Shown: positions 175 through 33,863 of the stretch, in pieces | Numbering within the stretch: position 1 is the stretch's first letter | Layout of the letters: the number at the start of each line of letters is the position of its first letter | NCBI GenBank assembly: GCA_963790795.1 | Contig: CAWBPO010000001.1 | Span: 268,073 to 332,072 of the forward strand | Direction: 5' to 3' | Source of the DNA: an uncultured bacterium | GTDB lineage: Bacteria; Patescibacteriota; Minisyncoccia; Minisyncoccales; RBG-13-42-11 | DNA: 64,000 nt | The notes under the pieces: generated by a model | The model's input: the letters and a program-made list of their open reading frames with translations, nothing else | Told to the model about the DNA's origin: nothing | Database searches by the model: none | Position numbers and translations under genes: made by a program

Positions 175-320
175 ATCTTTTTTTCGTAATAACTCTATTT
201 TCTATATAAATCAATAGGTTATATCTCACAACATAGATTGTCCGAATAAAAAATCGCTAAAAAGGCGATTCTTTAACTTTGACCTCTTTTTTAATTTCTG
301 ATATATTAAAAAAACGTTCA

Positions 321-893
321 ATGAACAGAGAGTTTTTAATACAATTGACGAACACGCTTTACCGCTTGACTTTGTTTTTTCCGAAAAAAGAGCCTTTGCG
401 GTATAAGATGAGGGAATTGGCTGACAGTTTTTTAATCAAGCCGAATGAGAAAGACTTGGAAGCTTTGGATAGCTTTTTTGATGTAGCTTTGGTTCAGAAC
501 TGGGTAAGTCCTTCTGACATGTTGGCAATTAAGAAAGAATATGCTAATTTGGTTGGAGAGCTGAAAAAGCCAAAACAGGAAAAAAAGAAACCCTCCTTCG
601 CTAAAACTTCGGAGGGCAAGGATAATCCTGTTGTTGTTGAAACTTATCATTCAGACACCGAGCGAATCGAGGTGAAGAAGAGGACGGAGTTCTCTTCGCC
701 CAGGCAGGAAAAGATAATTGAGTTTTTGAAAGAAAACGGCAGAGCCCAGGTTTGGCAGATAAAGCAAATTCTCCCAGATGTCAGTAAAAGAACTTTAAGA
801 CGGGATTTTGAAAATATGCTAGGCAGAGGAAACATTGAAAGAATGGGCGAAAGAAACAATACTTTTTATCAGATTAAGAACATTGAATCCTAG
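321..893 (+). CDS. DNA-binding protein with C-terminal DeoR-type winged HTH
   Basis: ORF 279..893; first ATG at 321 (MNREFLIQ). C-terminus RQEKIIEFLKENGRAQVWQIKQILPDVSKRTLRRDFENML fits the DeoR-family HTH pattern. N-terminal LYRLTLFFPKKEPLRYKMRELA loosely resembles four-helix-bundle (23S-IVS-type) proteins. Confidence 0.55.
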   Translation: MNREFLIQLTNTLYRLTLFFPKKEPLRYKMRELADSFLIKPNEKDLEALDSFFDVALVQNWVSPSDMLAIKKEYANLVGELKKPKQEKKKPSFAKTSEGKDNPVVVETYHSDTERIEVKKRTEFSSPRQEKIIEFLKENGRAQVWQIKQILPDVSKRTLRRDFENMLGRGNIERMGERNNTFYQIKNIES

Positions 894-963: not shown

Positions 964-1473
964 ATGGCAAACTATAAAAAAGAATTCGGAAAAATATACG
1001 ACCAGTGCATCAACAAAATATATCGGTTCATATTCTTGAAAGTGAACTCTGAAGACATTGCTCAGGATCTATGTTCAGAAACCTTTTTAAAAGGATGGGA
1101 ATCATACAAAAACAACCCTAAGATTGAAAATCCTTCTGCTTTTTTATATCGGATAGCAAGGAATCTGGTAATTGATCATTATAGGCAAAAGGCTAGGATA
1201 CAGTTTGTTTCCCCTGAAATAGTGCCGATTATTGACCCCAGCCAGGAAATAGAGGCAAAAGCAGCCTTGAATTCCGATATGGACCAAATTAAGATAGTTT
1301 TGGCAGATTTAAAGGAAAGTTACCAGAATATGATTATCTGGCATTATCTGGATCAGTTGTCCATACCGGAAATAGCTAAAATGACAGGAAAAACAGAAGA
1401 TGCCACAAGAGTAATGCTTTGCCGGGCCTTAAAAAATCTTAGAAACGAGATTAACCGCATTCAAACCTCTTAA
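964..1473 (+). CDS. RNA polymerase ECF (sigma-70 family, group 4) sigma factor
   Basis: Region 2 (IYRFIFLKVNSEDIAQDLCSETFLKGW ... FLYRIARNLVIDHYRQ) and region 4 HTH (LSIPEIAKMTGKTEDATRVMLCRALKNLR). Length of 169 aa is typical. Confidence 0.85.
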   Translation: MANYKKEFGKIYDQCINKIYRFIFLKVNSEDIAQDLCSETFLKGWESYKNNPKIENPSAFLYRIARNLVIDHYRQKARIQFVSPEIVPIIDPSQEIEAKAALNSDMDQIKIVLADLKESYQNMIIWHYLDQLSIPEIAKMTGKTEDATRVMLCRALKNLRNEINRIQTS

Positions 1474-1508
1474 GTGTAATAAAACAGGTGATTTTTCGTC
1501 ATAATAGT

Positions 1509-2207
1509 ATGACCGAGAAAGAACTCATTGGCAAAATACAGGAATTGCGCCAAATCAAACCCAGAAAAGACTGGGTTCTTTCTAACAAAGCCATGATTTT
1601 AGGCCCTTCGACAGGACTCAGGGCAAGCGAAAGCACAGGATTATTTTTCTTCCCTTATTTCAAACCAGCCTTAGTAAGCCTGGTTTCTGTTTTTGTCCTT
1701 GTCGGTTTATTCGGTTTTGCTCAAAACTCTTTACCTGGCAATTTCTTATATTCTATAAAAAAGATCACTGAAAAAAGCCAGGCGCTTTTTGTATCGGATA
1801 AAGGAAAAACAGAATTCAGCTTTAATTTAGCTGACAAGAGACTGGAAGAATTAACCAAAATAGCGGAAAACAACCAGGTTAAAAATCTGCCTCAGGCCAT
1901 AAACGAAGTTCAGGCCAGTATTTCTGAAGCAGTCAAGAATTTATCAAACAGTTCAGATACGCAAATGCTTGAAAAGCTGGCTGAATTAGGCAAGAACAAA
2001 CAGAATGCCGAGCAGATTTTAGCCACTCAGATTGATTCTGAAGAATTGGACAATGCTTATAAAAGTTTAACTGAAAACTTAATTAAAGACTTGGAAACAA
2101 GAACATTAACCGAAGAAAAACAGGAGATTTTAAGCCAGATGAAAGAGCTTTTTGAAGCTGGCAATTTTCAGCAGGCTTTGGAGCTTTATCTGGTAAATCA
2201 ACAGTAA
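1509..2207 (+). CDS. membrane-anchored helical protein, candidate anti-sigma factor (DUF5667-like by recall)
   Basis: ORF 1488..2207; first ATG at 1509. One TM segment (LVSLVSVFVLVGLFGF) followed by an extracytoplasmic helical domain. Sits immediately downstream of the ECF sigma gene. Confidence 0.45.
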   Translation: MTEKELIGKIQELRQIKPRKDWVLSNKAMILGPSTGLRASESTGLFFFPYFKPALVSLVSVFVLVGLFGFAQNSLPGNFLYSIKKITEKSQALFVSDKGKTEFSFNLADKRLEELTKIAENNQVKNLPQAINEVQASISEAVKNLSNSSDTQMLEKLAELGKNKQNAEQILATQIDSEELDNAYKSLTENLIKDLETRTLTEEKQEILSQMKELFEAGNFQQALELYLVNQQ

Positions 2208-2305
2208 ATTTGAAAATTCGCGAATCTCGTGACTAATACGTAAGGTCGCGAAGATACAAGGTCGACGCGATTGAGATAAATTATCATTAAATTAAAATTA
2301 TAAAA

Positions 2306-4273
2306 ATGACTAGTTTAACAAAAAAGATTGTAGCAATCGTAACAACAGTTACCTGCGCAGCCTGGATGATCAGTCCTGGAATCGCTTCAGCTTTAACCGC
2401 TGAAGAACTTCAGGCTCAAATCGCTACCTTGACCGCCCAATTAGCTACTCTTCAAAGTGAATTAACAACCTTAACAGGAACAACCGCTGCAGCCGGAACA
2501 CCGGCAGCTTGCGCTGGCATAACCTTTACTGTCAATTTGACAATAGGTTCCACTGGTGCTGATGTTCAATGCCTTCAGGCATTTTTGAACACTAATGCTG
2601 CAACTCAAGTTGCTGCCACCGGGGCAGGTTCTCCTGGAGCAGAAACAATGTACTTTGGTTCTTTAACCCAAGCAGCTGTTTCTAAATTCCAGGCAAACAA
2701 TGCTATTTCACCAACAGCCGGTTTCGTCGGTCCTATAACTCGCGCCAAATTGAACGAGCTGTTGACAACAGCAACTCCGACAGGACTTCCAGCTGGTTGT
2801 ACATCAACCGCTGGCTACAGCCCAACAACGGGTGTGTCTTGTGCCACTGTAACACCGACAACTCCAACAGGAGGCGCAGAGGGTAGCATTTCAGCATTAA
2901 CAGCTGCCACACCGATTACCGGGCAGACTATTTATGCCGGACAGGCTGAAATAGCGATAAATGGCCTTAATATAAAAGCTGTTGGCTCTGACGTATTGGT
3001 CAATCGTATTGACATCAAATTTGTCCAGAGACCATGGCTTTATGTTCCAAAGATTACAATCACTGATGGCACAAACGTCTTAGCCACCTTTGATGTAACT
3101 CAGGCCAGCACCATTGAAGTGACTGTTGGTTCAAATTACGTTGTTCGTATTGAAGGTTTGAACCTCAACATTCCAAAAGACACAACAGTATCTCTTGTTA
3201 TAAAGGCTGATGTTACATTGCCTGTGGGAATATCTGCTAATACAACCATCACTTACCAGGTTCTTGCTAACGCAGTTCGTGGAATTGATGGAGCTGGTTT
3301 GACACAATACGCTCCGCTTGGCAATTTAACCGCAAGAACCTTTATTATAGCGAGAAGTACTGTTGCCCAGCTTGATGTCGCTGCTGCCGCTGACAACCCG
3401 TTAGCCAAAGCAGTTATCATCAGTGAAACAGAAACAACAGAGAATGTTGAAATGTTGAGAGCTAATGTCAAGGCAAAATACAACGATGCTATTATAAGAA
3501 CAGTCGTTGTTGATTTGGTAGACGCTAACAGCAGAATAGGAGCTTTGAAGCTTTATGACGGTTCCACTCTGTTGGCTGCTACAAGCACAGCAGGCTCAGC
3601 CAGTTCTACTTTCACTGACCTTAGCTTGAGAGTTAACAAAGATACTACCAAGACATTGATTGTAAAAGGTGACGTTTTGGCTACCAGCACAGAAGGCTAT
3701 GCAGCTTCAGTTTCCTTACCGGTTACTGTTACTGCAATCGTTGCCGAAGATGCTGGCGATTACACAACAGTTACAACCCTTACTGGTTCAAAGGCTTCAG
3801 GTAATGCAGCTTACTTCTACACTCTAGCTCCGAGCTTGGCTTTGGTTAGCACTGAAATTACAGGAATTCAAGGCACTACAGGAAGCGCTTCACCTCAGCA
3901 AGCACAAGGCAAGATTAAGATCAATGTGACTGCTCAGGGCGGAGACATTTACGTGCCTAAGTACGCTGCCTTAGTAGCTTCTAGCGGTATTTCAGCTAGC
4001 GCTACCGGAAACACAGCAGCATCTCCTACTTGCACTTTCACCAGCAACGCAACCGAGAAAACAAATTCTTGGTTAGTTTCATCCGGTGAAACCAAATGGT
4101 TTGAGGTGTCATGTATGATGACCAGCAGTGGAGCAGCTGCTTTTGCCCGAGCATACTTAACAAACTTCAAGTGGGATATAAGCGACGCAGCAGCAACAAC
4201 GCCTGATCACAACTGGACTTGGGGTCTTGAAACATTCAAGACAAGCGACATCTTCTTGCAGACTAAAGGATAG
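2306..4273 (+). CDS. secreted Thr/Ala/Ser-rich cell-surface protein with N-terminal coiled coil and peptidoglycan-binding (PG_binding_1-like) domain
   Basis: Signal peptide MTSLTKKIVAIVTTVTCAAWMISPGIASA. Coiled coil AEELQAQIATLTAQLATLQSEL. PGB-like GADVQCLQAFLN...YFGSLTQAAVSKFQANNAISPTAGFVGPITRAKLNELL. Followed by a T/P linker and beta-rich repeats. Confidence 0.75.
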   Translation: MTSLTKKIVAIVTTVTCAAWMISPGIASALTAEELQAQIATLTAQLATLQSELTTLTGTTAAAGTPAACAGITFTVNLTIGSTGADVQCLQAFLNTNAATQVAATGAGSPGAETMYFGSLTQAAVSKFQANNAISPTAGFVGPITRAKLNELLTTATPTGLPAGCTSTAGYSPTTGVSCATVTPTTPTGGAEGSISALTAATPITGQTIYAGQAEIAINGLNIKAVGSDVLVNRIDIKFVQRPWLYVPKITITDGTNVLATFDVTQASTIEVTVGSNYVVRIEGLNLNIPKDTTVSLVIKADVTLPVGISANTTITYQVLANAVRGIDGAGLTQYAPLGNLTARTFIIARSTVAQLDVAAAADNPLAKAVIISETETTENVEMLRANVKAKYNDAIIRTVVVDLVDANSRIGALKLYDGSTLLAATSTAGSASSTFTDLSLRVNKDTTKTLIVKGDVLATSTEGYAASVSLPVTVTAIVAEDAGDYTTVTTLTGSKASGNAAYFYTLAPSLALVSTEITGIQGTTGSASPQQAQGKIKINVTAQGGDIYVPKYAALVASSGISASATGNTAASPTCTFTSNATEKTNSWLVSSGETKWFEVSCMMTSSGAAAFARAYLTNFKWDISDAAATTPDHNWTWGLETFKTSDIFLQTKG

Positions 4274-4354
4274 TTTCAGCTTTAACTTTCTTGTAAAGTT
4301 TTCGTTTCTTGCCGAGAATATTCCTTGTGTGTTCTGCGGACAAGACAAAAAGTT

Positions 4355-4380
4355 CCCAGCTTTAAAGCTGGGGCTTTTTG
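4355..4380 (+). terminator. rho-independent terminator after the surface-protein gene
   Basis: CCCAGCTTTAAAGCTGGG perfect hairpin followed by CTTTTTG. Confidence 0.7.
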
Positions 4381-4410: not shown

Positions 4411-6627
4411 ATGAAATCAATAACCAAGTTTTTGCTGTTTTCCGTATTAATCATCACTCCTTTCTTAAAAGTAGACTCTCTTTACTTTCCCTACGTTTCA
4501 GGGAAAATATATGTTTTCCGGCTTTTGGTAATGCTCGCTTTTTTCTTTTGGGTTTGGCTGATGCTGAAAGAAAGGGAATGCCCCTCGACTTCGCTCGGGG
4601 CAAGCAGCCCAAATTTTAAAAACATTCTGGTAATTGCTTTGGTTTTGTTTTTCTTAGCCCAGGTTTTAGTTTCTTTTTTTAGCGTTGACACTGCATATTC
4701 TTTTTTTTCCAGCATTGAAAGGGGAGAAGGCGTTTTACAGTACGGTTTCTGGCTTTTATATTTTTTAATACTTATTTCCGTTTTAAAAAGAAACCAAGAT
4801 TGGAAAATGCTTTTTTCGATTTTTGTGATTGTCGCTTTTTTGGTTTCTTGCTATTCCTGGCTGAATTTTAGCAGTCAGGGCCAGCTGCAGGGAATTTTCG
4901 GCAATCCCGCTTATTTTGCCTCTTTTTTGCTCTTTGCTATCGGTTTTGCTTTGTTAGTGGTTGAAAGAAAGTTTTTTGAAAGCCGCCTCATAAATAATTT
5001 GTTTATTGCGGCAGCCGGCTTTTTTGTTCTTACTTTAGTTTTTACCCAAATCAGAGGAGCTTATGCCGGACTGGCGGCCGGTGTCTTTCTTTTTTGCCTT
5101 TTATCTGTTTTGTTTTTAAGAAAAGAAAACAAAAAAGCGGCTGTTTTTTGCGGCATTTTACTATTAGTGGGTTTTGGCTCAATCGCTTTGCTTTTTTCCG
5201 CCAGAGAGAGCAATTTCGTTAAAAGCACTCCTCTTTTATCAAGGGTAACTGAGGTAACTAATATCTGGGAAACAGGTTCTACCAGAGAGCGTCTTTTAAC
5301 CTGGGAAATCGCTTTGAAAGCTTTTAAGGAAAAGCCGGTTTTCGGGTACGGTCCTGAGAACTTTGGAGTTGTTTCTAACAAGTATTACGACTACCGGATA
5401 GGCAGGGGAGAAGCCTGGTTTGACAGGGCGCACAACAATGTTTTTGAGATTCTGGCAACAGGCGGCATTATTCTTTTTTCTTTTTATCTTTTCTGGCTGG
5501 CTGCTGCAGCTTTTCTTATCTTTAAAATATATAAAGAGAAAAAACTTCTTTCTTTTCTTTTGGCTTCCCTGTTCTTGGCGTATTTCGTGCAAGGGCTTTT
5601 TCTTTTTGACGTTTTTGCCTCGTATCTCGGCCTTTTTCCGTTTCTGGCGTTTTTGGTTTTTAAATGCAGTTCTTCAAAAGAAGATTTTTCAGAAAGAAGC
5701 AATTTAAAAAGAAATCCTCCTTTGTTTATTTTGATTTTCGTCGGTATTTTTTCTTTTTTCGTCGTTTTTACCTCTTGTTTTTTGCCTTATAAAGCCAATG
5801 CTGCGCTTTTAAACTTTTGTAATTCTACGGAAAACGGCTTTTACAAGGAAGCTGAGCTGTTTTTGGAAGAATCTTTCAAAGTACAGTCGCCATATACTTT
5901 TTGGGAAACAAGAAAAAGGGCTGGCTGGCAATTTTTAAAAATTCTTGATTACGAGGTGGATGAGAATACAACTTCCGGAGACCTTCAGACAGTCAAAGAC
6001 ATTTATGATTTTATTGTTCCTGAACTTGAAGGGCTTGCTCAAAATCGGCCTTCTGAACAGCAGACATATTATCTTTTAGGCAGGATTTACCGTTTGGGTT
6101 CTGAGAAATTAGATAGAAATGATTTGGACAAAGCAGTAGATATTCTTGAAAAAGGATTCGCATATTCTGATTTAAGAGTTGATTATTTCAGTGAATTGGC
6201 CCAGGTTTTGCTTTCTCAGGGAAAATTTGAACAAGGTGAAGCATTGGTCAAGGATTATGTTAACAGGACGCATTTTCAGAATTATTTTCCCTTTTTAACT
6301 TTAGGACATTTTTATTTTGTGGCAGGCAAGTATAATTTAGCATTGGAACAATATGAAAAAGCAAGGGAAGTGGGCTATGATTTTTGTGAGATTGAGGCGG
6401 AATACAGCCGCTATATGACCGTGGCAGAACAAACGCAGGAATACCAAAAAATCGTTGATATGGCTAAAAGGTATTTGGAGGAGAAAGGGCCAGATTCAGA
6501 TACATATTTTAATATTGCTGTCGGCTATTTCAATCTTGAAGAAAAAGAAAAGGCAAAAGAATTCTTTTTGAAAGCTTTGGAACTTGACGCGCAGTACGAG
6601 TCATACCGGCCAATTTTCATTTATTAA
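4411..6627 (+). CDS. O-antigen ligase / O-oligosaccharyltransferase-like (Wzy_C) polytopic membrane protein with C-terminal TPR domain
   Basis: ORF 4378..6627, but 4378-4380 lies in the terminator T-tract, so ATG 4411 (MKSITKF) is preferred. About 12 TM segments. Motifs FTQIRGAYAGLAAGVFLF and WFDRAHNNVFEILATGG are typical of the Wzy_C family. C-terminal TPR-like repeats (ALEQYEKAREV..., AKEFFLKALELDAQ). Confidence 0.8.
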   Translation: MKSITKFLLFSVLIITPFLKVDSLYFPYVSGKIYVFRLLVMLAFFFWVWLMLKERECPSTSLGASSPNFKNILVIALVLFFLAQVLVSFFSVDTAYSFFSSIERGEGVLQYGFWLLYFLILISVLKRNQDWKMLFSIFVIVAFLVSCYSWLNFSSQGQLQGIFGNPAYFASFLLFAIGFALLVVERKFFESRLINNLFIAAAGFFVLTLVFTQIRGAYAGLAAGVFLFCLLSVLFLRKENKKAAVFCGILLLVGFGSIALLFSARESNFVKSTPLLSRVTEVTNIWETGSTRERLLTWEIALKAFKEKPVFGYGPENFGVVSNKYYDYRIGRGEAWFDRAHNNVFEILATGGIILFSFYLFWLAAAAFLIFKIYKEKKLLSFLLASLFLAYFVQGLFLFDVFASYLGLFPFLAFLVFKCSSSKEDFSERSNLKRNPPLFILIFVGIFSFFVVFTSCFLPYKANAALLNFCNSTENGFYKEAELFLEESFKVQSPYTFWETRKRAGWQFLKILDYEVDENTTSGDLQTVKDIYDFIVPELEGLAQNRPSEQQTYYLLGRIYRLGSEKLDRNDLDKAVDILEKGFAYSDLRVDYFSELAQVLLSQGKFEQGEALVKDYVNRTHFQNYFPFLTLGHFYFVAGKYNLALEQYEKAREVGYDFCEIEAEYSRYMTVAEQTQEYQKIVDMAKRYLEEKGPDSDTYFNIAVGYFNLEEKEKAKEFFLKALELDAQYESYRPIFIY

Positions 6628-6689
6628 CGCTTTTTTCTGCTAACCGGGTTTTCAAAATTCTATAATTTGATAATATATATATTGAGCTA

Positions 6690-8387
6690 ATGAAAAGCAT
6701 TTTAAAGGCAAATTTTTTATTTCTCTTTCTTTCTTTTTTAATTTTGGGAAGCGCTTTTGCTGTTGGAGTAAACGCTCAGTCAGAAACAAAGTCTTTCTAC
6801 GTTGAAAGCTCATATGATTTGTACGCCAGAAAAAGTGTTGAAACGGTTTTGGTACGCACTTCCGACAATCTGTATTTCTACGTTGAAAAGCCGTGGTGGG
6901 ATAATCGTTCTTCGGCAGAGCAAAACAATATCAGGGTTGCGCTTTACGATCTGGCAGAGGAATTTAAAAACAAAATCTATCCTGTTTTAACTTCTACTTT
7001 CGGCTCTGAATGGAATCCTGGAATTGACAATGACAGCAGAATCACGGTTTTAATTCATGAAATGGAAAGGGGTGTGGGAGGATATTTCCGCAACCACAAT
7101 GAATACTACAAGCCCCAGGTATACAGCTCAAACGAGGCAGAAATGCTGTATCTTAATTCCCAGTTTATCACCGCTTCCTTTGCTAAGAGCTTTTTGGCGC
7201 ACGAATTCGTTCATTTGATAACTTTCAACCAGAAAGACAGATTGAGGAACATTACAGAGGACGTCTGGCTCAATGAACTAAGAGCAGAGTACGCTCCCAC
7301 TCTTTTGGGATATGATGACATTTACGAAGGATCCAATCTTCAAAAAAGAGTAAATACTTTCTTAAACAATCCCTCTATTTCTCTGATTGAGTGGCAGAAT
7401 GAGGTTGAAAGCTACGGAGTTTTGAACGTTTTCGTCCAGTATTTAGTTGATCATTACGGATTTAAAATTCTGCAGGATTCTCTTTTTTCTTCAAAAGTGG
7501 GCATTGAATCGATAAATTACGCTCTGCAAAGAAACGGCTTTCAGAAGGATTTTTCCCAGATTTTCAGCGATTGGGCAGTAACTGTTTTGGTCAATGACTG
7601 CTCTTTGGGAAGCAGCTATTGTTATAAAAACAGTAATTTGAAGAATTTCAGGATTACTCCAGAAACCAACTTTATTCCGACAACTGCCGAAAGCACCTTG
7701 ATCACTTACAACCAGATTAAGGATTGGTCAGCCAAGTGGCAAAGAATATTCGGTGGTAAAGGAAGCTTAACTTTGAATTTCAGCGGAGGCGTAGGAATCA
7801 ATTTTAAAGTTCCTTATGTTGTTTGCGATTTTGACAACAAATGCTTTGTTAAAATCTTAACTTTGGATAAAGACGGGAAGGGGCAGATATTGATTTCCGA
7901 TTTCAGCTCAAAGTACTTTTCCCTGACTTTGGTGCCCTCTGTCCAGCAAAGGCAGTCAGAGTTTACGGGTAACGGATCTTATTATCCTTTTTCTTTGGAA
8001 ATAAAAACAAGGGAAGTGTCAGGCGATGGCGATGCTTTGATTCAGAGCCTTCTTGACAAGATAGCTTATTTGCAAGCTGAGATTGCCAGAGTACAGGCAG
8101 CCATTAACGCTTTTTTGGCTTCGCAAGGCAAGGAACAAATGAATTTTTCCTCCTGCCAAAGTTTTGGTAATGATCTTTACTACGGAATGAAAAACAGCCA
8201 GGAAGTTTCCTGCTTGCAGCAATTTTTGAAATCCAAGGGTTCCGATATTTATCCTGAAGGATTGGTGACTGGAAACTTTCTTTCTTTGACTTTTACCGCT
8301 GTTCAAAGATACCAGGCAAATAAAGGAATAATCCAGACAGGCTATTTTGGTCCTTTAACAAGAACAGCGGCTAATGCCGAATTATAA
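6690..8387 (+). CDS. secreted gluzincin zinc metallopeptidase with C-terminal coiled coil and peptidoglycan-binding domain
   Basis: Signal peptide. HEFVH zinc motif followed 20 residues later by VWLNELRAEYA, comparable to M1-type HExxH...WLNEGFA. C-terminus LQAEIARVQAAINAF plus SQEVSCLQQFLKSKG...GYFGPLTRTAANA (PGB-like). Confidence 0.7.
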   Translation: MKSILKANFLFLFLSFLILGSAFAVGVNAQSETKSFYVESSYDLYARKSVETVLVRTSDNLYFYVEKPWWDNRSSAEQNNIRVALYDLAEEFKNKIYPVLTSTFGSEWNPGIDNDSRITVLIHEMERGVGGYFRNHNEYYKPQVYSSNEAEMLYLNSQFITASFAKSFLAHEFVHLITFNQKDRLRNITEDVWLNELRAEYAPTLLGYDDIYEGSNLQKRVNTFLNNPSISLIEWQNEVESYGVLNVFVQYLVDHYGFKILQDSLFSSKVGIESINYALQRNGFQKDFSQIFSDWAVTVLVNDCSLGSSYCYKNSNLKNFRITPETNFIPTTAESTLITYNQIKDWSAKWQRIFGGKGSLTLNFSGGVGINFKVPYVVCDFDNKCFVKILTLDKDGKGQILISDFSSKYFSLTLVPSVQQRQSEFTGNGSYYPFSLEIKTREVSGDGDALIQSLLDKIAYLQAEIARVQAAINAFLASQGKEQMNFSSCQSFGNDLYYGMKNSQEVSCLQQFLKSKGSDIYPEGLVTGNFLSLTFTAVQRYQANKGIIQTGYFGPLTRTAANAEL

Positions 8388-8430
8388 CAAGCTCTAGCTT
8401 GGTATATCGAATAACGTTCGTTATGAGTGC

Positions 8431-8455
8431 TTGACAATAATTTTTATGCTACAAT
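8431..8455 (+). promoter_or_regulatory. candidate extended -10 promoter for the Calx-beta protein gene
   Basis: TTGACA at 8431, but only 13 nt before TGcTACAAT (8447..8455). The extended -10 is therefore the credible part. A hairpin TTCCACAG/CTGTGGAA at 8469..8500 follows in the leader. Confidence 0.35.
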
Positions 8456-8547
8456 GAATAAATGAGTTTTCCACAGGTTAAGTTATATTCAACTGTGGAA
8501 TAATCAAAAAATTGTTGAAATACATATAACTATAACCAACTAAAAAT

Positions 8548-10575
8548 ATGATTCAAAATAAAAAAATCTTTATCAAAACAATAGTTTCTTTTGTCGGTAC
8601 AGGGCTAGTCGCATTCGCCCTTCTATTTTTCGCTGGCGTTTCTACTATTAAAGCAGCAAACCCTACTATTCAGTTCACCGCCACCAGTTCCAGTGCGGCA
8701 GAATCAGTTACTCCAGCTATTTTAGAATTAACCCTTTCAGTTGCTACGGGCTCTGATGCCACGGTTGACTACGCTTTAACCGGCACAGCCACTGGCGGAG
8801 GAGTAGATTATACTGCAAATGCTACTGGCACAGCTACCATTTCAGCTGGCAATACTACCACCACTGTCTCGATTGTCATTGTTAATGACACGCTTGATGA
8901 AAACAACGAAACCATTATTGTCACCATCTCTAATCCTGCCAATGCTACTTTAGGCACTAATACTGTTTATACTTATACAATTAATGATAATGATACAGCA
9001 CCTACTATTCAGTTTACCGCCACCAGCTCAAGCGCTGCTGAAAGCGTCACTCCAGTTAGTTTAGAGTTTGTTTCGTCAGCAGTTTCTGGTCTGGATGTTA
9101 GCGTTGACTACGCTTTAACCGGCACAGCCACTGGCGGAGGAGTAGATTATACTGCAAATGCTACTGGCACAGCTACCATTTCAGCTGGCAATACTACCAC
9201 CACTGTCTCGATTGTCATTGTTAATGACACGCTTGATGAAAACAACGAAACCATTATTGTCACCATCTCTAATCCTGCCAATGCTACTTTAGGCACTAAT
9301 ACTGTTTATACTTATACAATTAATGATAATGATACAGCACCTACTATTCAGTTTACCGCCACCAGCTCAAGCGCTGCTGAAAGCGTCACTCCAGTTAGTT
9401 TAGAGTTTGTTTCGTCAGCAGTTTCTGGTCTGGATGTTAGCGTTGACTACGCTTTAACCGGCACAGCCACTGGCGGAGGAGTAGATTATACTGCAAATGC
9501 TACTGGCACAGCTACCATTTCAGCTGGCAATACTACCACCACTGTCTCGATTGTCATTGTTAATGACACGTTTGAGGAAAACAACGAAACCATTATTGTC
9601 ACCATCTCTAATCCTGCCAATGCTACTTTAGGCACTAATACTGTTTATACTTATACAATTAATAATAATGATACGTATTACAGTGGCGGCGGGAGTATAC
9701 CATCAACGCCAATTACTGCCACAGGACAAGTAACTGCTACTCCTTCTGCTGGCGGGAAAACAACGTTGACCACTTCAGCAGGCACAACAGCAACAGTTGA
9801 ATTACCGGCAGGAGCCGTAACATTTAATACCGTTATAACAATTCAAGAAGCAGTCACAGGAACCATTGTCATTGGCGCTCCGATTCCAACTGGACAAACA
9901 ATAATCAGCGGTTTTACCGTTACAACAACTGTTGATGGTACGGCTGTTACCAGTAGTTTTTTAAAGAGCGTCACTATAACCGTTACATACACTGACGCCC
10001 AGGTGGCTGGAATTGACGAATCAAGTTTAAAGCTTTATCGCTGGAATGGTACGCAATGGGTTGCCTTAATTTGTACAATCAATACTACTACCAACACTAT
10101 TACTGCTACAACCACTTCTTTTTCCAAGTTTGCCGTAATGACCAGTACTTCAACGACTTCAGCGGTCAAACCTTTAAGTGAAATGAGTATTGCTGAATTG
10201 CAGACTGAAATAGCTAGAATTACTGCTTTAATTACTCAATTGCAAACCCAGATAGCTCAGCTTCAGGGTGGAGTTTCTATTTCTCTTTGCGTTGGTACAA
10301 CCTTTAGCAGGAACCTATCTCAGGAAATGACAGGCAATGATGTTAAGTGTTTACAGTCAATCTTGAACCAGTCAACCGATACCAGAGTAGCTGCTTTGGG
10401 AGTTGGCTCTTCTGGCTATGAGACGACTTACTTCGGCGCTTTGACAAAAGCTGCCGTAATAAAATTCCAGGAAAAATACAAATCTGAAATTTTAACTCCG
10501 GTCGGCTTGAGCGCTGGAACCGGATTTGTCGGCCTTTCTACTAGAGCTAAATTGAACGCTTTATTAGGGAAATAG
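8548..10575 (+). CDS. secreted surface protein with three tandem Calx-beta-like domains, a beta-rich domain, and a C-terminal coiled coil with peptidoglycan-binding domain
   Basis: N-terminal signal/TM. Three repeats of ([18 protein letters not shown]...[18 protein letters not shown]...[19 protein letters not shown]). C-terminus [25 protein letters not shown] plus [12 protein letters not shown]...[14 protein letters not shown]...[15 protein letters not shown]. Confidence 0.8.
8662..9678 (+). repeat. 3 x 339-bp in-frame tandem repeat (113-aa Calx-beta-like unit)
   Basis: Units start at 8662, 9001 and 9340. Units 2 and 3 differ by only a handful of substitutions (e.g. CTTGATGAA vs TTTGAGGAA) and at the last ~15 nt. 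Unit 1 diverges in its first ~100 nt and is then identical. Confidence 0.95.
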
Positions 10576-10602
10576 AAAAACAGAAATTGTTTGGAATGAG
10601 AA

Positions 10603-10632
10603 AACCGGTGAATTATGCTCGCCGGTTTTTTG
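10603..10632 (+). terminator. rho-independent terminator
   Basis: ACCGGTG-aattatgct-CGCCGGT followed by TTTTTT. A second perfect hairpin TGTTGAAGT-cta-ACTTCAACA follows at ~10632..10652. Confidence 0.7.
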
Positions 10633-10697
10633 TTGAAGTCTAACTTCAACAATCTATGGTTTGATATATCGAACAAAGTTTGATATAATTAACCTAT

Positions 10698-11000
10698 ATG
10701 AAAGAACGATTAGCGTTGAGGCCGACCTTATTTTGGGAGGTAAATCCTAAAAAGCTTGATGAGCAAAAAGATGCCGAATTTATCATCGGACGGGTCTTGG
10801 ATTTTGGCAACTTAAGAGAGTGGAAAGCAATAAAAGATTTTTACGGTTTAGCCAAGATAAAAAAGATCGTCCAGGAGCATATTTTTTCCGACCCGCGCAG
10901 CGCTAATTTCTGGGCAATGATATTCGGCATTCATTTAAAAAATTTACGATGCAAGAAGAAGTTCTCACTAAAAACACCAAAAGCGTTCTCAATGCGTTAG
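10698..11000 (+). CDS. small protein upstream of AbiEii-like gene, candidate antitoxin (DUF6922-like by recall)
   Basis: 100-aa ORF overlapping the next gene by 52 nt. Motif LFWEVNPKKLDEQKDAEFIIGRVLDFGNLREW resembles the small partner proteins found with short AbiEii-family genes. Confidence 0.45.
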   Translation: MKERLALRPTLFWEVNPKKLDEQKDAEFIIGRVLDFGNLREWKAIKDFYGLAKIKKIVQEHIFSDPRSANFWAMIFGIHLKNLRCKKKFSLKTPKAFSMR

Positions 11001-11581
11001 ACGCTTCCGGTATTGCAAAGAATTTTTATTTAGCGGGTGGAACAGCGCTGGCTCTTTATTTCGGGCATCGTTTTTCTGTTGACCTTGATTGGTTTTCCGA
11101 AAAATTTGATTACACCTCCTCTTTCCGCAAACAGCTGGAAAAACTTGGAAAACTGGGCGTAGACAGCGAGTCTGAAAAAACTTTTAACGGCACATTGAAC
11201 AGAGTAAAAATCAGCTTTTTTGAATATCCATATCCCTTGGTAGCACCAAAGCAACGATACAAAGACAATATTTATCTGGCTGGTATTCCTGATATAGCGG
11301 CAATGAAGATGGAAGCTATCGGCAGGAGAGGTTCTCACAAAGATTTTATTGATATATATTTTCTTTTGCAGCATTATTCTTTAGAAGAACTTCTTGGATT
11401 TGTGCACAAAAAATTTGCCAATATTGAATATAACGAAACTCATCTTTTAAAAGCGCTGACTTATTTTGCAGACGCCAAAGGGTCTGTAATGCCGCAACCC
11501 ATAAAACAGGTAAGCTGGCAGAAGATTACAGGCACAATTAGACGCAACGTAGAAGCTTATTTAAAAAACTACGGTAAATAG
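10949..11581 (+). CDS. nucleotidyltransferase AbiEii/AbiGii toxin-family protein
   Basis: FYLAGGTALALYFGHRFSVDLDWF... and KMEAIGRRGSHKDFIDIYFLL match the DUF1814/AbiEii signature. Confidence 0.75.
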   Translation: MQEEVLTKNTKSVLNALDASGIAKNFYLAGGTALALYFGHRFSVDLDWFSEKFDYTSSFRKQLEKLGKLGVDSESEKTFNGTLNRVKISFFEYPYPLVAPKQRYKDNIYLAGIPDIAAMKMEAIGRRGSHKDFIDIYFLLQHYSLEELLGFVHKKFANIEYNETHLLKALTYFADAKGSVMPQPIKQVSWQKITGTIRRNVEAYLKNYGK

Positions 11582-11638
11582 ACGCTATTATAGAATTGAA
11601 TACTGCATTATTAATTTTAAATTTAAAATTTTAATTCT

Positions 11639-11953
11639 ATGTTAACTTTTTTCTTCGCCGGCTTTTTGGGCGGCGCAATAAGGGGACTCCTTGGCATTAT
11701 TAAGCACACTCTTTCTTACAAGGACGTGAAAATGCGTTGGGGGTATTTTAGCTCTCTGGCTTTCATTTCAGGATTTATCGGCTTGATTTCGGTCTGGATA
11801 ATACAGGAACTGGGCATTGCTTTTCTTGAGGTTAAAGTGCTTTCTCCGGCAATTGCTTTGATTGTCGGGTATGCCGGAGGCGATTTTTTGGAAAACATTT
11901 TCAAAGTCATAATCAAAAAGCCCATTCTTTTTGAACAGGAAAAGGAAGAATAG
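11639..11953 (+). CDS. small integral membrane protein (3 predicted TM), unknown function
   Basis: 104-aa ORF with hydrophobic segments FFFAGFLGGAIRGLLGII, LAFISGFIGLISVWII and LSPAIALIVGYAGG. Confidence 0.5.
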   Translation: MLTFFFAGFLGGAIRGLLGIIKHTLSYKDVKMRWGYFSSLAFISGFIGLISVWIIQELGIAFLEVKVLSPAIALIVGYAGGDFLENIFKVIIKKPILFEQEKEE

Positions 11954-11987
11954 ATTTTATTCGTATTTTGATACTTTTTGACACCTA

Positions 11988-12016
11988 TTGACACCCTTGC
12001 TTGGGTGTTTTAATAT
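11988..12016 (+). promoter_or_regulatory. sigma-70-type promoter (TTGACA-17 nt-TAATAT)
   Basis: TTGACA 11988..11993, 17-nt spacer, TAATAT 12011..12016. A second TTGACA lies 10 nt upstream at 11978. Confidence 0.5.
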
Positions 12017-12022
12017 TAAATA

Positions 12023-12175
12023 TATGCCCCGTAATACAACTTCCAGTAGGTGCGTTTCGTAACAAACGCCAGGGCATAACTTAAATGATTGTAAATATGA
12101 AACCATTATCAAATAACCATCAATAGAGCAAAACGCACCTGACGGCGTTTGGCTCTGGAAGTTGATATACGGGGT
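12023..12175 (+). promoter_or_regulatory. ~150-nt structured 5' leader with mutually exclusive pairings, upstream of the HTH gene
   Basis: Long-range arms CCCCGTAATACAACTTCCAG (12027..12046) / CTGGAAGTTGATATACGGGG (12155..12174) and AGGTGCGTTT (12048..12057) / AAACGCACCT (12131..12140). Competing local hairpins GCGTTT-cgtaac-AAACGC (12052..12069) and AAACGC-acctgacg-GCGTTT (12131..12150). The 3' arm ends 1 nt before ATG 12176. Confidence 0.4.
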
Positions 12176-12421
12176 ATGCCGGAAATCAATCCAAAAGAAG
12201 TATATACAACCAAAGAAGCACAGGATTTCTTGAAAGTTAGTTCGAGCACGATTAAACGACTGTTGAAACGGGGAATAATCAAAGCTTATAAGGTTGGCGG
12301 CACTTACCGGATCTGGGGGAGCGAAATTTTAGAATTGGTTTCTCCGAAATTGGAGAAAAAAGTTTACAGAGTTTATAAAAAGGTCAAAGATAAAACAAGA
12401 GAAACCATTGAGAAGTGGTGA
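12176..12421 (+). CDS. excisionase-family / MerR-like helix-turn-helix DNA-binding protein
   Basis: ORF 12149..12421 has a TTG start inside the leader helix; ATG 12176 is preferred. YTTKEAQDFLKVSSSTIKRLLKRGIIKAYKVGGTYRI matches the HTH_17/excisionase DNA-binding pattern. Confidence 0.7.
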   Translation: MPEINPKEVYTTKEAQDFLKVSSSTIKRLLKRGIIKAYKVGGTYRIWGSEILELVSPKLEKKVYRVYKKVKDKTRETIEKW

Positions 12422-13194: not shown

Positions 13195-14664
13195 ATGAAC
13201 GCTATTTTGCCAGACATAAAATCAATTTTCTTTCATAATAAAACGACCAAACAAACGATATTTAAAAATAGTTTTTGGTTGGCAATAAATGAAGGCATAA
13301 GTAAGCTGGCAAAGCTGGTTTTGCTTATCTATGTGGCAAGAATATTGGGAGCCACCGATTACGGAAAATTTACTTTTGCTTTGGCTTTTGTAAGTTTGTT
13401 TCTTATATTTTTTGATTTTGGTCTGGCGCAAATTACCACTAGAGAATTTTCCCGCGAAAAGGAGAAAGAAAATGAGTTTTCCTCTCTCTTTTCTTTAAAG
13501 CTTATTCTGGGGTTAGGAACCTTGCTTTTGATATTAATCGTTTCTTTCTTTATTACTCCCAGCCTTTTAATTCAAAAGATAATCTGGATTTTAGCTGTTT
13601 GCTTTTTTATTGAAGGTCTTTTTGAAATACTTGTTGCTTTTTTCAGGGCTCGTCAAAAAATGGAGTATGAGGCTTTTGTGAAAACCTCAGAGTCTTTAAT
13701 ACTGGTTGGCGTCGGACTTTTTACCCTGTTTTATTGCCCCTCAATAATAAATTTAAGCTACAGCTATTTGTTCGGTGCCTTTGTTGCCTTAATTTTTGCT
13801 TTAGTTATTTTTCACTTTAAGTTTCAGAGAATCTCTTTCAATTGGAACAAGTCAGTTTGGAAAAAATATTTATATATATCTTGGCCATTGGGATTGGTGG
13901 CAATTTTAAGCACGATTTATAACCAGATTGATTCGGTTATGATGGGTTACTGGGGGATGATTACGGAAACCGGTTGGTATAACGCAGCTTACAGGATTGT
14001 CTGGCCGACTTTAATTCCGATAAGCCTGATTTCCGTTAGCTTTTTTCCGGTTTTAAGCAGGTATTTCAAAGAGTCAAAAGAAAAACTCCAGAAAGCCTGG
14101 GATTATCAGAATGAAATAATGGTTTTATTGGCGCTTCCCTTAATGGTTGGAGGAATAGTTCTGGCTCCGAAAATCATTGATTTTATTTACGATTCAAGTT
14201 TTGCTCCTTCAATCTTGGCTTTTCAAATTTTGATCCTAATGTCGGGGATTATGTTTCTTTATAATGCTTTTTATCAGGTATTAATTGCGGCCAACCAGCA
14301 AAAAAATATTTTCTGGGCTGTTTTGTCTGGAGCGATAATCAACATTATTTTGAATTTTCTTTTAATTCCGAAATTCAGCTTATATGGAGCAGCCGTAGCC
14401 ACGGTAATCACTCAAATTTTAGTGTTCTTTTTGCTGTTTAGATTTACTTTGAAGTTTACTCCGATTAATCCTTTTACCCTAAGGCTTTTTCTGGTTTTTC
14501 TTGGCGTTATTGGCTCCAGTACGGCAATGTATTTTGCGATAATCCAGCCGCAGATTTATAATCTTCATGTTTTGCTTTCTATTTTGGTCGGAATTGCCGT
14601 TTATTTTGCTGCTATTTTCGCCTTTAAATATGTGATAAAATATTTTAGTAGTTTAATTCATTAA
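13195..14664 (+). CDS. oligosaccharide flippase (Wzx / MOP superfamily polysaccharide biosynthesis protein)
   Basis: 489 aa with ~12-14 TM segments. N-terminal KNSFWLAINEGISKLAKLVLLIYVARILG is typical of the Polysacc_synt family. Confidence 0.8.
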   Translation: MNAILPDIKSIFFHNKTTKQTIFKNSFWLAINEGISKLAKLVLLIYVARILGATDYGKFTFALAFVSLFLIFFDFGLAQITTREFSREKEKENEFSSLFSLKLILGLGTLLLILIVSFFITPSLLIQKIIWILAVCFFIEGLFEILVAFFRARQKMEYEAFVKTSESLILVGVGLFTLFYCPSIINLSYSYLFGAFVALIFALVIFHFKFQRISFNWNKSVWKKYLYISWPLGLVAILSTIYNQIDSVMMGYWGMITETGWYNAAYRIVWPTLIPISLISVSFFPVLSRYFKESKEKLQKAWDYQNEIMVLLALPLMVGGIVLAPKIIDFIYDSSFAPSILAFQILILMSGIMFLYNAFYQVLIAANQQKNIFWAVLSGAIINIILNFLLIPKFSLYGAAVATVITQILVFFLLFRFTLKFTPINPFTLRLFLVFLGVIGSSTAMYFAIIQPQIYNLHVLLSILVGIAVYFAAIFAFKYVIKYFSSLIH

Positions 14665-14676
14665 ATAAATAAAAAT

Positions 14677-15696
14677 ATGCAAGAAAACAACTCAATCCAA
14701 ATAAACAAAGTTTTAATAACCGGCATAGGCGGTTTTGTCGGCAGCCACTTAGCAGACTATATTGTCACTAAGTTTCCTAATGTTCAGGTTTTGGGGTTGA
14801 CGCGCTGGTGGGAGCCGAGAGAAAACATCAAGCAAAGCATAGATAAGATTAAATTATGTTACGGCGATTTGGTGGATTTACCTTCCCTTGAAACTCTTTT
14901 GCAGGAGCATAAGCCAGACGTGATTTTCCATCTAGCTGCGCAGTCATACGTAGATTTCAGTTTTTGGGCGCCCATTACCACCTTAGACACCAATGTGATA
15001 GGCACAGCGAATTTATTGGAAGCTGTAAGAAAGTTGAAAGCCAGTTCAGGGTACGATCCGATAATCCAAATAGCCAGTTCTTCAGAATGCTACGGTCAGG
15101 TAAAAGAAAATGAAGTTCCGATAAAAGAAACCAATCCTTTCAGGCCGGCTTCCCCGTATGCTGTAAGCAAGGTGGCAGAAGACATGCTGGCTTTTCAATA
15201 CTGGCTGTCCTGGAAAGTTAAAACCATCAGGACGAGGATGTTTACCCATACCGGGCCCAGAAGAGGAGAAGTTTTCGTTGAATCTAATTTTGCCAAACAA
15301 ATTGCTGCCATTGAAGCAGGATTGCAAGAGCCGGTAGTTAAAGTTGGGAACTTGGACAGCGTGAGAACCTTTTTAGACATTAAAGACGCTATCAGAGCTT
15401 ACTGGCTGTTAGTAAACAAATGTTCTCCTGGCGAAGTTTACAATGTCGGCGGAAAAGAGACTATGACCGTGGGCGAAATGCTGGATAAGCTTTTAAAGCT
15501 TTCAACCGTAAAGGATATAAAAATTGAAGTTGACCCTGCCCGCTTAAGGCCTTCGGATGTTACCTTGCAGATTCCATGCGTTGACAAGTTTAAGCAGGCG
15601 ACCGGCTGGGAACCAGAGATTAAATTCGATCAAACTTTGGAGGATATTCTGAATTATTGGCGGGATTATTATAAAAGAGAAAAGCAAAATGTCTAA
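14677..15696 (+). CDS. GDP-mannose 4,6-dehydratase-family SDR (candidate GDP-heptose 4,6-dehydratase/C4-oxidase)
   Basis: VLITGIGGFVGSHLADYI, catalytic YAVSK, HTGPRRGEVFVESNFAKQI and VGNLDSVRTFLDIKDAIRAYWLL parallel GMD motifs (SPRRGxxFVTRKI; GNLDAKRDW). Confidence 0.7.
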   Translation: MQENNSIQINKVLITGIGGFVGSHLADYIVTKFPNVQVLGLTRWWEPRENIKQSIDKIKLCYGDLVDLPSLETLLQEHKPDVIFHLAAQSYVDFSFWAPITTLDTNVIGTANLLEAVRKLKASSGYDPIIQIASSSECYGQVKENEVPIKETNPFRPASPYAVSKVAEDMLAFQYWLSWKVKTIRTRMFTHTGPRRGEVFVESNFAKQIAAIEAGLQEPVVKVGNLDSVRTFLDIKDAIRAYWLLVNKCSPGEVYNVGGKETMTVGEMLDKLLKLSTVKDIKIEVDPARLRPSDVTLQIPCVDKFKQATGWEPEIKFDQTLEDILNYWRDYYKREKQNV

Positions 15697-16651
15697 GTTG
15701 AATTTAGAACTTTATAAAAAGTTATATTTAATCAGGAAAGCTGAGGCAGAGATTTGCAAGCATTATCCGGAAAATGAAATGAAAACGCCTATGCACATGT
15801 CTATGGGAAGCGAGGCTATTTCTGTCGGGGTTTGCCAGGCTCTTAAAAAGCAGGACCAGGTTTTCGGCACTTACCGTTCGCACGCTCTTTATTTGGCAAA
15901 AGCATCGGAAACTGATAAATTTTTTGCTGAAATGTATGGCAGAGCAACCGGCAGTGCCAAAGGAAAAGCAGGTTCCATGCATTTGTCTTTTTCTGAAACA
16001 GGTTTTATGGGCGCTTCAGCCATTGTGGCCAGTAACATTCCTTTGGCTGTGGGAGCAGCTTTTGCCAATAAATTCAAAAGGAACGGTCGAATTACGGCAG
16101 TATTCTTTGGCGATGGCGCAGCTGACGAAGGCAATTTTTGGGAAAGTTTGAACGTTGCCTGTTTGATGCGGCTGCCGATATTGTTTGTCTGCGAAGATAA
16201 TGATTTAGCCATGCATACATATAAATCAGAGAGGAACGGCTATAAATCTTTGAGCGCCATTGTATCAAAATTCGATTGCCATGTTTTTGGCAGTGAAACT
16301 ACTGATGCAGAAGCAATTTTTAAACTTGCAAAGAAAGCGATAGAGCTGATTAAAAAGACTCAGCGGCCCGCTTTCTTGCATTTGAGATATTACCGTTATC
16401 TGGAGCATGTTGGCATTTATGAGGACTTTGATGGCGGTTACCGCTCAAGGAAAGATTTTGAAGCGTGGTACAAACGCGATCCGATAATTCTGCAAAGGAA
16501 GAAATTATTGAAATCAAGAATTAAGGAAAAATCTATTTTAGCCATTGAGCAGAAAATAGATAAACAAGTAGAAAAAAGCGTAAAGTTAGCCCAAAAAGCG
16601 CCCTTTGCTGGAAAGGACGAGCTCTACGCCAATGTTTTTTATGAAAAATAG
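15689..16651 (+). CDS. thiamine-diphosphate-dependent dehydrogenase E1 component, alpha subunit-like
   Basis: MHMSMGSEAISVGV..., TYRSHALYLAKA and ThDP-binding FFGDGAADEGNFWESLNVACLMRLPILFVCEDNDLA. Confidence 0.85.
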   Translation: MSKLNLELYKKLYLIRKAEAEICKHYPENEMKTPMHMSMGSEAISVGVCQALKKQDQVFGTYRSHALYLAKASETDKFFAEMYGRATGSAKGKAGSMHLSFSETGFMGASAIVASNIPLAVGAAFANKFKRNGRITAVFFGDGAADEGNFWESLNVACLMRLPILFVCEDNDLAMHTYKSERNGYKSLSAIVSKFDCHVFGSETTDAEAIFKLAKKAIELIKKTQRPAFLHLRYYRYLEHVGIYEDFDGGYRSRKDFEAWYKRDPIILQRKKLLKSRIKEKSILAIEQKIDKQVEKSVKLAQKAPFAGKDELYANVFYEK

Positions 16652-30396: not shown

Positions 30397-30400
30397 AAAT

Positions 30401-33860: not shown

Positions 33861-33863
33861 TTT

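Follow-up and report, generated by a model that had tools for sequence, protein, structure and literature searches.

We examined a 64,000-nt stretch of the genome of an uncultured Patescibacterium (G+C 37.7%; hereafter, the window), in which two genes of the forward strand encode large membrane proteins of the Wzy_C type, here called A (4411..6627) and B (42585..44765). A, read from an ATG, has 738 amino acids (aa) and comprises a WaaL-like Wzy_C core with 12 transmembrane (TM) helices, a thirteenth TM helix and a tetratricopeptide repeat (TPR) domain (residues ~463-738); B (726 aa) is its paralogue and has an identical architecture. Upstream of A, on the same strand, lies the gene for SP1 (2306..4273), a secreted, peptidoglycan-anchored protein that is the candidate acceptor or partner of A, and the interval between A and B is occupied by a glycan locus, also on the forward strand. 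An alternative upstream start of A, a TTG at 4378, was rejected: it falls in the T-run of a terminator-like hairpin, so that the ATG is the likelier start.

In a domain scan that covered 47 open reading frames (ORFs) of the window, both proteins matched Pfam Wzy_C above the curated cut-off of 31.7 bits (A: E 9.8e-21, 74.5 bits; B: E 3.1e-16, 59.9 bits) and several TPR families at their C-terminus. A and B align end to end with 26% identity (BLASTP, E 3e-47), and the profiles of their cores match each other with E 1e-54. The architecture that the initial annotation had read in both proteins, a Wzy_C core with a C-terminal TPR domain, is thus borne out by the Pfam matches and the full-length alignment. 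Of the two motifs that it had described as shared, WxDRxHN does occur in A (as WFDRAHN) and in B (as WYDRVHN), but RGAYAGL is found in A only; B has TKGAVVAF, and the position is not a conserved Arg across the B family.

Of the two proteins, only A was modelled with AlphaFold2 (AF2; pLDDT 92.4, pTM 0.89), B being judged by sequence profiles. In a Foldseek search of the Protein Data Bank (PDB), the sole membrane-protein match of the A model was WaaL (7tpg_B), with a TM-score of 0.65 over 449 columns. Because full-length PDB searches with A and B were swamped by designed and eukaryotic TPR proteins, core-only alignments were used as queries; among PDB sequences these profiles matched 7tpg alone (E 0.011 for A, 1.6e-4 for B). 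R215, R294 and H341 of A align on R191, R265 and H313 of this WaaL (7TPG), equivalences that rest on alignments, and hhalign to E. coli WaaL covered 309 columns for A and 250 columns for B, with the Arg, Arg and His motifs in register. In E. coli WaaL, R215, R288 and H338 are the residues that we take to be functional. The conserved residues are R215, R294 and H341 in A, and R285 and H333 in B. Across 93 sequences the second Arg and the His do not vary, while the first Arg is conserved in the A family only: the WaaL proteins of E. coli and C. metallidurans share with the A family an Arg at the start of the Wzy_C domain, where members of the B family carry K, Q, A or R (residue ~215 of B). The paralogues thus differ in a putative donor-binding residue. 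The His is known to be essential in Wzy_C enzymes (PMC9829042).

Hydropathy and the AF2 model give A 12 membrane helices and a single loop of 70-76 residues between TM9 and TM10, which bears the invariant R294, G312/G314 and W336-D338-H341. The core is followed by a short, poorly conserved linker rich in K/R, by helix 13 (~438-462) and then by an all-helical TPR solenoid of ~280 residues. If both ends of the core are inside, as in WaaL, helix 13 and the positive-inside linker would carry the TPR domain across, so that in both proteins it is predicted to be extracytoplasmic and next to the catalytic loop. Conservation of the TPR domain is on a par with that of the core (A: 0.65 for the TPR domain, 0.67-0.73 for the core; B: 0.62 and 0.69-0.77), while the cytoplasmic linker is not (0.27-0.34, against ~0.65 for the TPR domain), which argues that the TPR domain has a conserved job, plausibly the binding of a conserved partner. 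It had been proposed from the outset that this domain may select the acceptors; its predicted extracytoplasmic position and its conservation are consistent with the proposal, but the selecting role itself is one that we infer.

A and B are large conserved families of the Patescibacteria, each with its own fixed neighbours. Among the candidates scored, 170 homologues of A (43-98% identity) and 420 of B (47-100%) were counted; those listed are nearly all 700-830 aa long with Wzy_C and TPR, and their sources are named as Nealsonbacteria, Wildermuthbacteria, Staskawiczbacteria, Pacebacteria and Minisyncoccales. When the core alone was searched against 1.84 billion cluster representatives, 1,069 clusters matched at E <= 1e-30, and most of the best 150 are 700-800 aa long. 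A scan of one genome per species (GTDB) gave 559 relatives, of which the best 80 lie essentially all in metagenome-assembled genomes (MAGs) of Patescibacteria, and the closest relatives of the window are all Parcubacteria/Patescibacteria MAGs.

We compared the window with loci of relatives, labelled by L numbers, and with eight related neighbourhoods in particular (nine in all with the window). A-type genes are preceded, in this order, by genes for a DeoR-type helix-turn-helix (HTH) protein, an extracytoplasmic function (ECF) sigma factor, a DUF5667 membrane protein and SP1, and are often followed by an orthologue of 6690..8387 (downstream of A in 4/6 loci) and then by a Wzx-containing glycan cluster that differs between genomes. 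SP1 stands directly upstream of A-type genes in 7/7 informative GTDB loci, as against 0/57 for B or B-like genes, and the SP1-A order is also found in L001, L003, L007 and L008. In MAGs of the Minisyncoccales, an orthologue of A and one of SP1 share a contig of 30,129 bp (P0098, P0244). B-type genes belong to a block of their own, which runs from a GT2 glycosyltransferase through a methyltransferase, a small phosphoglycosyltransferase, a split transketolase, a DegT aminotransferase and a PglF-like dehydratase to B and murB. B or B-like genes have murB <3 kb downstream in 17/54 loci and a phosphoglycosyltransferase within 3.5 kb in 17/57, and the overlap of the dehydratase gene with B (17 bases in the window) recurs in L004-L006. 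A contig of another genome holds both genes at a distance of 46 kb, with glycan genes following A and preceding B. The location of the two genes at the two ends of a surface-protein and glycan region, as first described for the window, is thus a conserved arrangement.

Tandem duplicates of Wzy_C-TPR genes occur in some genomes (L008, at 6495..12259; L023; L068; L080). In L008 there are two A-type copies with a Big_7 protein between them, and B-like copies stand in tandem in the other loci, a hint that acceptor or donor specificity has diversified.

SP1 is composed of a signal peptide, a coiled coil, a PG_binding_1 domain, a disordered Thr/Pro linker (~155-192) and three Ig-like beta-sandwich domains. 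In its AF2 model (pLDDT 87) the linker is of low confidence, and by Foldseek its domains resemble integrin legs, the Ig-like domains of PrgB, AgI/II C-domains and pilins. The family (722 matches) is uncharacterised and its members share contigs with A orthologues; the SP1 orthologues that lie beside A-type genes have 43-46% identity and equal length. In 73 orthologues the linker has a median length of 32 aa, with 27% Ser and Thr (S+T), 69% S/T/P/A/G and 5% charged residues, and about half of these linkers end in TTPG[AV] right before an invariant EG. We also considered SP1 as a Wzz-like co-polymerase and rejected it, given its cleavable-type signal, its three Ig-like domains and the lack of a second TM segment. 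A promoter-like site precedes SP1 (2271..2298, forward strand; a match to the consensus only, at 10/12), and a strong terminator-like hairpin separates it from A (4354..4373, forward strand; 8-bp stem with 5 G-C pairs, followed by the T-run). Together they would suit an abundant structural SP1 with read-through into A, but both are matches to a consensus and no more.

SP1 and the secreted protein encoded at 8548..10575 are compositional outliers. They contain 24% and 30% S+T, respectively, for a window median of 10%; in both, S+T+A+G+P reach ~50% (vs ~27%) and charged residues are reduced to 10-12% (vs ~27%). Each has an N-terminal hydrophobic, signal-like segment and a PG_binding_1 domain (Pfam). 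The Thr/Ser/Ala/Pro richness of these neighbours and their anchoring to peptidoglycan, which the initial annotation had noted, therefore stand, and the peptides that it quoted are present.

Directly after A, the gene at 6690..8387 (forward strand) encodes a secreted protein of 565 aa with an HEFxH...WLNE motif, a C-terminal coiled coil and PG_binding_1 (Pfam). It is 50-54% identical to its orthologues in L007 and L008, in which the motif is invariant. This motif is a gluzincin-like metallopeptidase signature, and the protein, which matched no Pfam peptidase family, is a putative metallopeptidase. The protein at 8548..10575 (forward strand) has three Calx-beta repeats, a Thr/Ser-rich segment and a C-terminal coiled coil with PG_binding_1; its repeats are near-identical (~113 aa, with a DNA period of 339 bp), and false promoter-like matches recur in step with them at 8942, 9281 and 9620. 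A module made of a coiled coil and a Cys-flanked PG_binding_1 domain is found at 2306..2770, 8030..8387 and 10250..10575, N-terminal in SP1 and C-terminal in the 565-aa and Calx-beta proteins, and may be a standard wall anchor of these bacteria.

Upstream of SP1, the block begins on the forward strand with the DeoR-type HTH protein (279..893; Pfam HTH_DeoR), which is kept in L001, L003, L007, L014, L016 and L017. It continues with the ECF-type sigma-70 factor (964..1473; Pfam Sigma70_r2 and r4_2), conserved upstream of SP1-A in other Parcubacteria, and with the DUF5667 protein (1488..2207; Pfam), an anti-sigma-like, single-pass membrane protein with one hydrophobic segment and conserved synteny. 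Between the surface-protein genes and the glycan locus lies a pair of ORFs (10698..11581, the first being 10698..11000), the second of which encodes a nucleotidyltransferase toxin of the AbiEii type (type IV toxin-antitoxin).

The glycan locus, which lies on the forward strand, includes a Wzx-type flippase (13195..14664; Pfam Polysacc_synt, NCBIfam MOP flippase). A heptose-activation set (29398..32292) is composed of an HddA-like kinase, GmhA and a nucleotidyltransferase-GmhB fusion, identified by Pfam and by best NCBIfam matches that remain under the curated cut-offs. It is followed, by Pfam, by a GT1-like glycosyltransferase (32299..33423), a DUF4430/DUF6580 pair (33420..34436), a GT2 glycosyltransferase (34459..35400) and a methyltransferase (35405..36208). 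The initiating enzyme is a small monotopic phosphoglycosyltransferase of 197 aa (36230..36823; Pfam Bac_transf, E 4.8e-59; NCBIfam). The conserved B module further holds a split transketolase-like thiamine diphosphate (ThDP) pair (37881..39634; Pfam, synteny), a sugar aminotransferase of the DegT/PglE type (39631..40737; Pfam, E 1.9e-106; NCBIfam) and a membrane-anchored UDP-N-acetylhexosamine (UDP-HexNAc) 4,6-dehydratase of the PglF type (40709..42601; Pfam Polysacc_synt_2, E 2.4e-114), the 3′ end of which overlaps the start of B. Enzymes resembling GDP-mannose dehydratase and fucose synthase, as well as methyltransferases, are also encoded in the locus.

Among the 47 ORFs scanned and in the eight related neighbourhoods, there are no lipid A or core genes (lpx, waa). 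CPR bacteria (Candidate Phyla Radiation) are considered monoderm. For the ORFs and neighbourhoods scanned, the lack of a lipopolysaccharide context noted at first holds, in a monoderm-type CPR setting.

Several other features of the region deserve mention. Three split ThDP pairs lie in the sugar locus (15689..19467 and 37881..39634), one E1 alpha/beta-like and two transketolase N/C-like, suggesting two-carbon branched or unusually acylated sugars. A B12-binding radical-SAM enzyme is encoded at 19452..21371, and the DUF4430 protein and the 5-TM DUF6580 protein may be a cobalamin-binding and uptake pair that serves it. Downstream of B, murB (45015..45934, forward strand; Pfam) is split by a frameshift in the window: its first 240 codons end at 45737, and its last ~62 residues, which are 69% identical to MurB of L004, are read in another frame up to 45934. 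Either the assembly is wrong here or the gene is a pseudogene. Finally, a TrwB/TraG-like coupling-protein ATPase with a treble-clef zinc finger is found at 56336..58009, downstream of Sec genes.

Altogether, we propose a model that we hold tentatively, with a little less than even confidence, in which A and B are paralogous en-bloc transferases of the WaaL/PglL/WsfB type, A being dedicated to SP1 and B having a housekeeping function. The small phosphoglycosyltransferase would start an undecaprenyl-PP-linked oligosaccharide on a sugar of the 4-amino-4,6-dideoxy-HexNAc type, which the PglF-like dehydratase would supply together with the DegT aminotransferase. The glycosyltransferases of the locus would add heptose-derived and other sugars, and Wzx would flip the glycan outward. 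The Wzy_C core would hold the lipid-PP-glycan through the conserved Arg/His of its large external loop and then move the glycan to an acceptor hydroxyl, while helix 13 would set the TPR solenoid beside the catalytic loop, where it could hold the acceptor or a partner protein. A would serve SP1, with the disordered Thr/Pro linker as the most plausible site, and perhaps other adjacent peptidoglycan-anchored proteins. B would be a second, housekeeping ligase tied to the initiation module, with other proteins, or a wall or lipid component, as its acceptor.

The kind of enzyme and the Wzy_C-TPR architecture are already known; what is new here is the conserved contexts of A and B in the Patescibacteria, and we found no literature describing this architecture in the CPR. 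The closest precedent is WsfB of Paenibacillus alvei, the predicted S-layer O-oligosaccharyltransferase of a monoderm, with Wzy_C and TPR in one protein, while Geobacillus stearothermophilus has WsaB and a separate, adjacent TPR protein, WsaA (PMC2943079). By description, on which we compared the architectures, WsfB resembles A and B in its Wzy_C domain and C-terminal TPR domain, its monoderm host and its surface-glycan locus. Its target is an abundant wall-associated surface protein, and SP1 is likewise wall-associated. However, WsfB glycosylates Tyr, the WsfB systems export their glycan by an ABC transporter while this locus has Wzx, and here we find two conserved paralogues, A being directly beside its candidate target. 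A and B share with WaaL (C. metallidurans 7TPG and E. coli) the 12-TM fold, the large external loop between TM9 and TM10 and the aligned Arg, Arg and His, but they differ from it by a 13th helix and an external TPR domain of ~280 residues, by an identity of only ~16%, by the missing first Arg of B and by neighbourhoods that, where scanned, have no lipid A-core context.

The likeness to PglL/PglS and TfpO/TfpM lies in the Wzy_C core and its essential His (PMC9829042). The acceptors of these enzymes are low-complexity Ser/Thr/Ala/Pro segments, and dedicated members are encoded beside their substrates; some species hold two O-oligosaccharyltransferases with different targets (PMC12645811, PMC9829042). 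In the PglL/PglS class, Wzy_C is accompanied by PglL_A and Wzy_C_2 (PMC12645811). A and B have neither domain; moreover, the hosts of the known enzymes are diderm, and none of these enzymes has a large TPR solenoid. In addition, the neighbour of A is an Ig-like, peptidoglycan-anchored protein and not a pilin, so that only the principle of substrate adjacency is common with TfpO/TfpM. TacL, the lipoteichoic-acid ligase of Streptococcus pneumoniae, is a Wzy_C enzyme of a monoderm that uses an undecaprenyl-PP-linked glycan, flipped by a Wzx-type protein and starting with an amino-dideoxy-HexNAc (PMC5727136). It differs by its size (397 aa), its lack of a TPR domain and its glycolipid acceptor; A and B likewise have a Wzy_C domain, and an AATGal-like initiation module is present in the locus. 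The fusion of a glycosyltransferase to a protein-engaging TPR solenoid is also seen in eukaryotic TMTC O-mannosyltransferases and OGT, with unrelated folds and donors, and is to be taken as an analogy only.

From fold, motifs and context it is clear that the substrate of A and B is a lipid-PP-linked glycan that has been flipped, the identity of which we infer, and four points, if none of them decisive, favour en-bloc ligases over repeat-unit polymerases. Both are conserved beside variable sugar genes (orthologues are 43-83% identical beside differing sugar-gene sets), have one large external loop and match no polymerase family of Pfam or NCBIfam, and there is no Wzz or other polymerase candidate. 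Neither Wzz nor LCP nor a further polytopic candidate was found in the window or the eight other neighbourhoods, and a separate Wzy in the locus was rejected, the polytopic proteins there being only Wzx, the 5-TM DUF6580 protein and the dehydratase anchor. Comparison of A and B with E. coli WbbH and WzyE by hhalign gave E 0.04-0.39 over 14-46 columns, which is a weak negative since both comparators belong to other Pfam families. By fold, by motifs and by the lack of a polymerase-model match, the earlier view of A and B as WaaL/PglL-type enzymes rather than recognisable polymerases holds.

Nonetheless, several points weigh against our model. One flippase with two Wzy_C-type proteins is also the classic flippase-polymerase-ligase gene set, a polymerase could also stay conserved if the glycan had a conserved backbone and varied in its side branches, and the first conserved Arg is missing from the B family. 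TPR domains also serve as scaffolds for polysaccharide export. Neither PglL_A nor Wzy_C_2 was reported for A or B at E <= 0.01 (Pfam), a minority of SP1 orthologues have acidic linkers with few Ser/Thr, and the linkage of B to initiation genes and murB speaks for a housekeeping envelope role that is not specifically directed to proteins. One of the paralogues, most likely B, could thus be a Wzy-type polymerase and the other, A, the ligase. We regard this division of labour as unlikely but worth keeping in view: the locus has a single Wzx, a single initiating transferase and a pair of Wzy_C-type proteins but no further polymerase candidate, B is joined in one operon with the initiation module, Pfam Wzy_C takes in some polymerases, and the loss in the B family of an Arg that the A family and WaaL keep points to a differing donor site. 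Against it, the two families remain highly conserved where the sugar genes change, the external loop is single where two would be expected of a polymerase, no polymerase model is matched and no alignment to E. coli Wzy or WzyE is obtained, Wzz is missing across the neighbourhoods examined, and B shares the strongly conserved external TPR domain of A. Far less credible is the idea that A and B are not glycan transferases at all but IctB-like, Wzy_C-like transporters or structural TPR scaffolds. The weak NCBIfam match of A to the IctB family (E 6e-9) is far under the cut-off, and the invariance of the catalytic Arg and His motif in the 93 sequences, the WaaL fold of the A model and the embedding of both genes in glycan loci make such a role most improbable.

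As for the acceptor, domains alone cannot tell O-oligosaccharyltransferases from ligases such as WaaL, and dedicated O-oligosaccharyltransferases are typically encoded beside their own substrates (PMC12645811). Protein O-glycosylation of SP1 by A is our leading hypothesis and the best supported one, while for B it would be no better than its alternatives. The initial annotation had gone further in proposing a general O-glycosylation system; because A is linked strictly to SP1, we favour a dedicated enzyme over a general one. The ligase type of both proteins and the pairing of A with a wall-anchored SP1 agree with the O-glycosylation reading as such, but the missing PglL_A and Wzy_C_2 domains and the position of B away from surface-protein genes do not. 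The acceptor may also not be a protein: A and B could transfer the glycan to a glycolipid, as TacL does, or to peptidoglycan or lipid II in place of LCP, yielding a lipoglycan or a wall glycopolymer, and the TPR domain would then dock wall-synthesis or wall-anchored proteins that are not substrates. TacL is, after all, a Wzy_C ligase of a monoderm whose donor starts with AATGal, a 4-amino-4,6-dideoxy-HexNAc (PMC5727136), and the conserved B module, with a dehydratase, an aminotransferase and a small transferase but no acetyltransferase, recalls the AATGal-initiated pneumococcal teichoic acid. The murB genes after B or B-like genes (17/54 loci), the lack of LCP genes in the neighbourhoods examined and the peptidoglycan-binding domains borne by all neighbours of A would also suit such an acceptor. 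However, TacL has ~400 aa and no TPR domain, the adjacency of murB may be an inherited gene order of streamlined genomes, and the A-SP1 pairing (7/7 vs 0/57) is the pattern of dedicated enzyme-substrate pairs of O-oligosaccharyltransferases (PMC12645811). We consider a non-protein acceptor for the system unlikely, if a realistic alternative. It is rather improbable, in our view, that the TPR-bearing WaaL-family enzymes are the general envelope ligases of the Parcubacteria, replacing LCP and WaaL, with B acting on peptidoglycan or lipid II and A on an S-layer-like SP1. We give still less credit to a two-step protein glycosylation, in which B would add to proteins a conserved core glycan made by its own conserved module and A would ligate a variable outer glycan to that core, or the reverse. 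A conserved end module and a variable middle between two conserved transferases would fit such a scheme, and a model with one oligosaccharyltransferase and one ligase exists for Bacteroidota (PMC12871550); yet that model is itself unproven, and the window has one initiating transferase and one flippase.

CPR bacteria, or Patescibacteria, are mostly uncultured episymbionts whose surface contacts the host cell, and the construction of this surface is almost unexplored. Here we define a conserved surface module composed of a sigma factor, an anti-sigma-like protein, SP1, the TPR-ligase A and a putative metallopeptidase, and a second conserved ligase, B, attached to glycan-initiation genes, with a hypervariable sugar cluster between A and B. 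Should A and B carry out ordinary polymer ligation, the finding would be a useful annotation and nothing beyond. If they are instead the general envelope ligases, the complete glycan coat across a whole bacterial radiation would be the work of two paralogues. Protein O-glycosylation that depends on an oligosaccharyltransferase has been described as mainly a Gram-negative trait (PMC12871550). If A does glycosylate SP1, such glycosylation would count among the core traits of a large radiation of monoderms, and SP1, A and B would be concrete targets for glycoproteomics of the first Minisyncoccales in culture and for glycoengineering with new acceptor rules. The value of the system lies in the entry point that it offers into the surface biology of the Patescibacteria.

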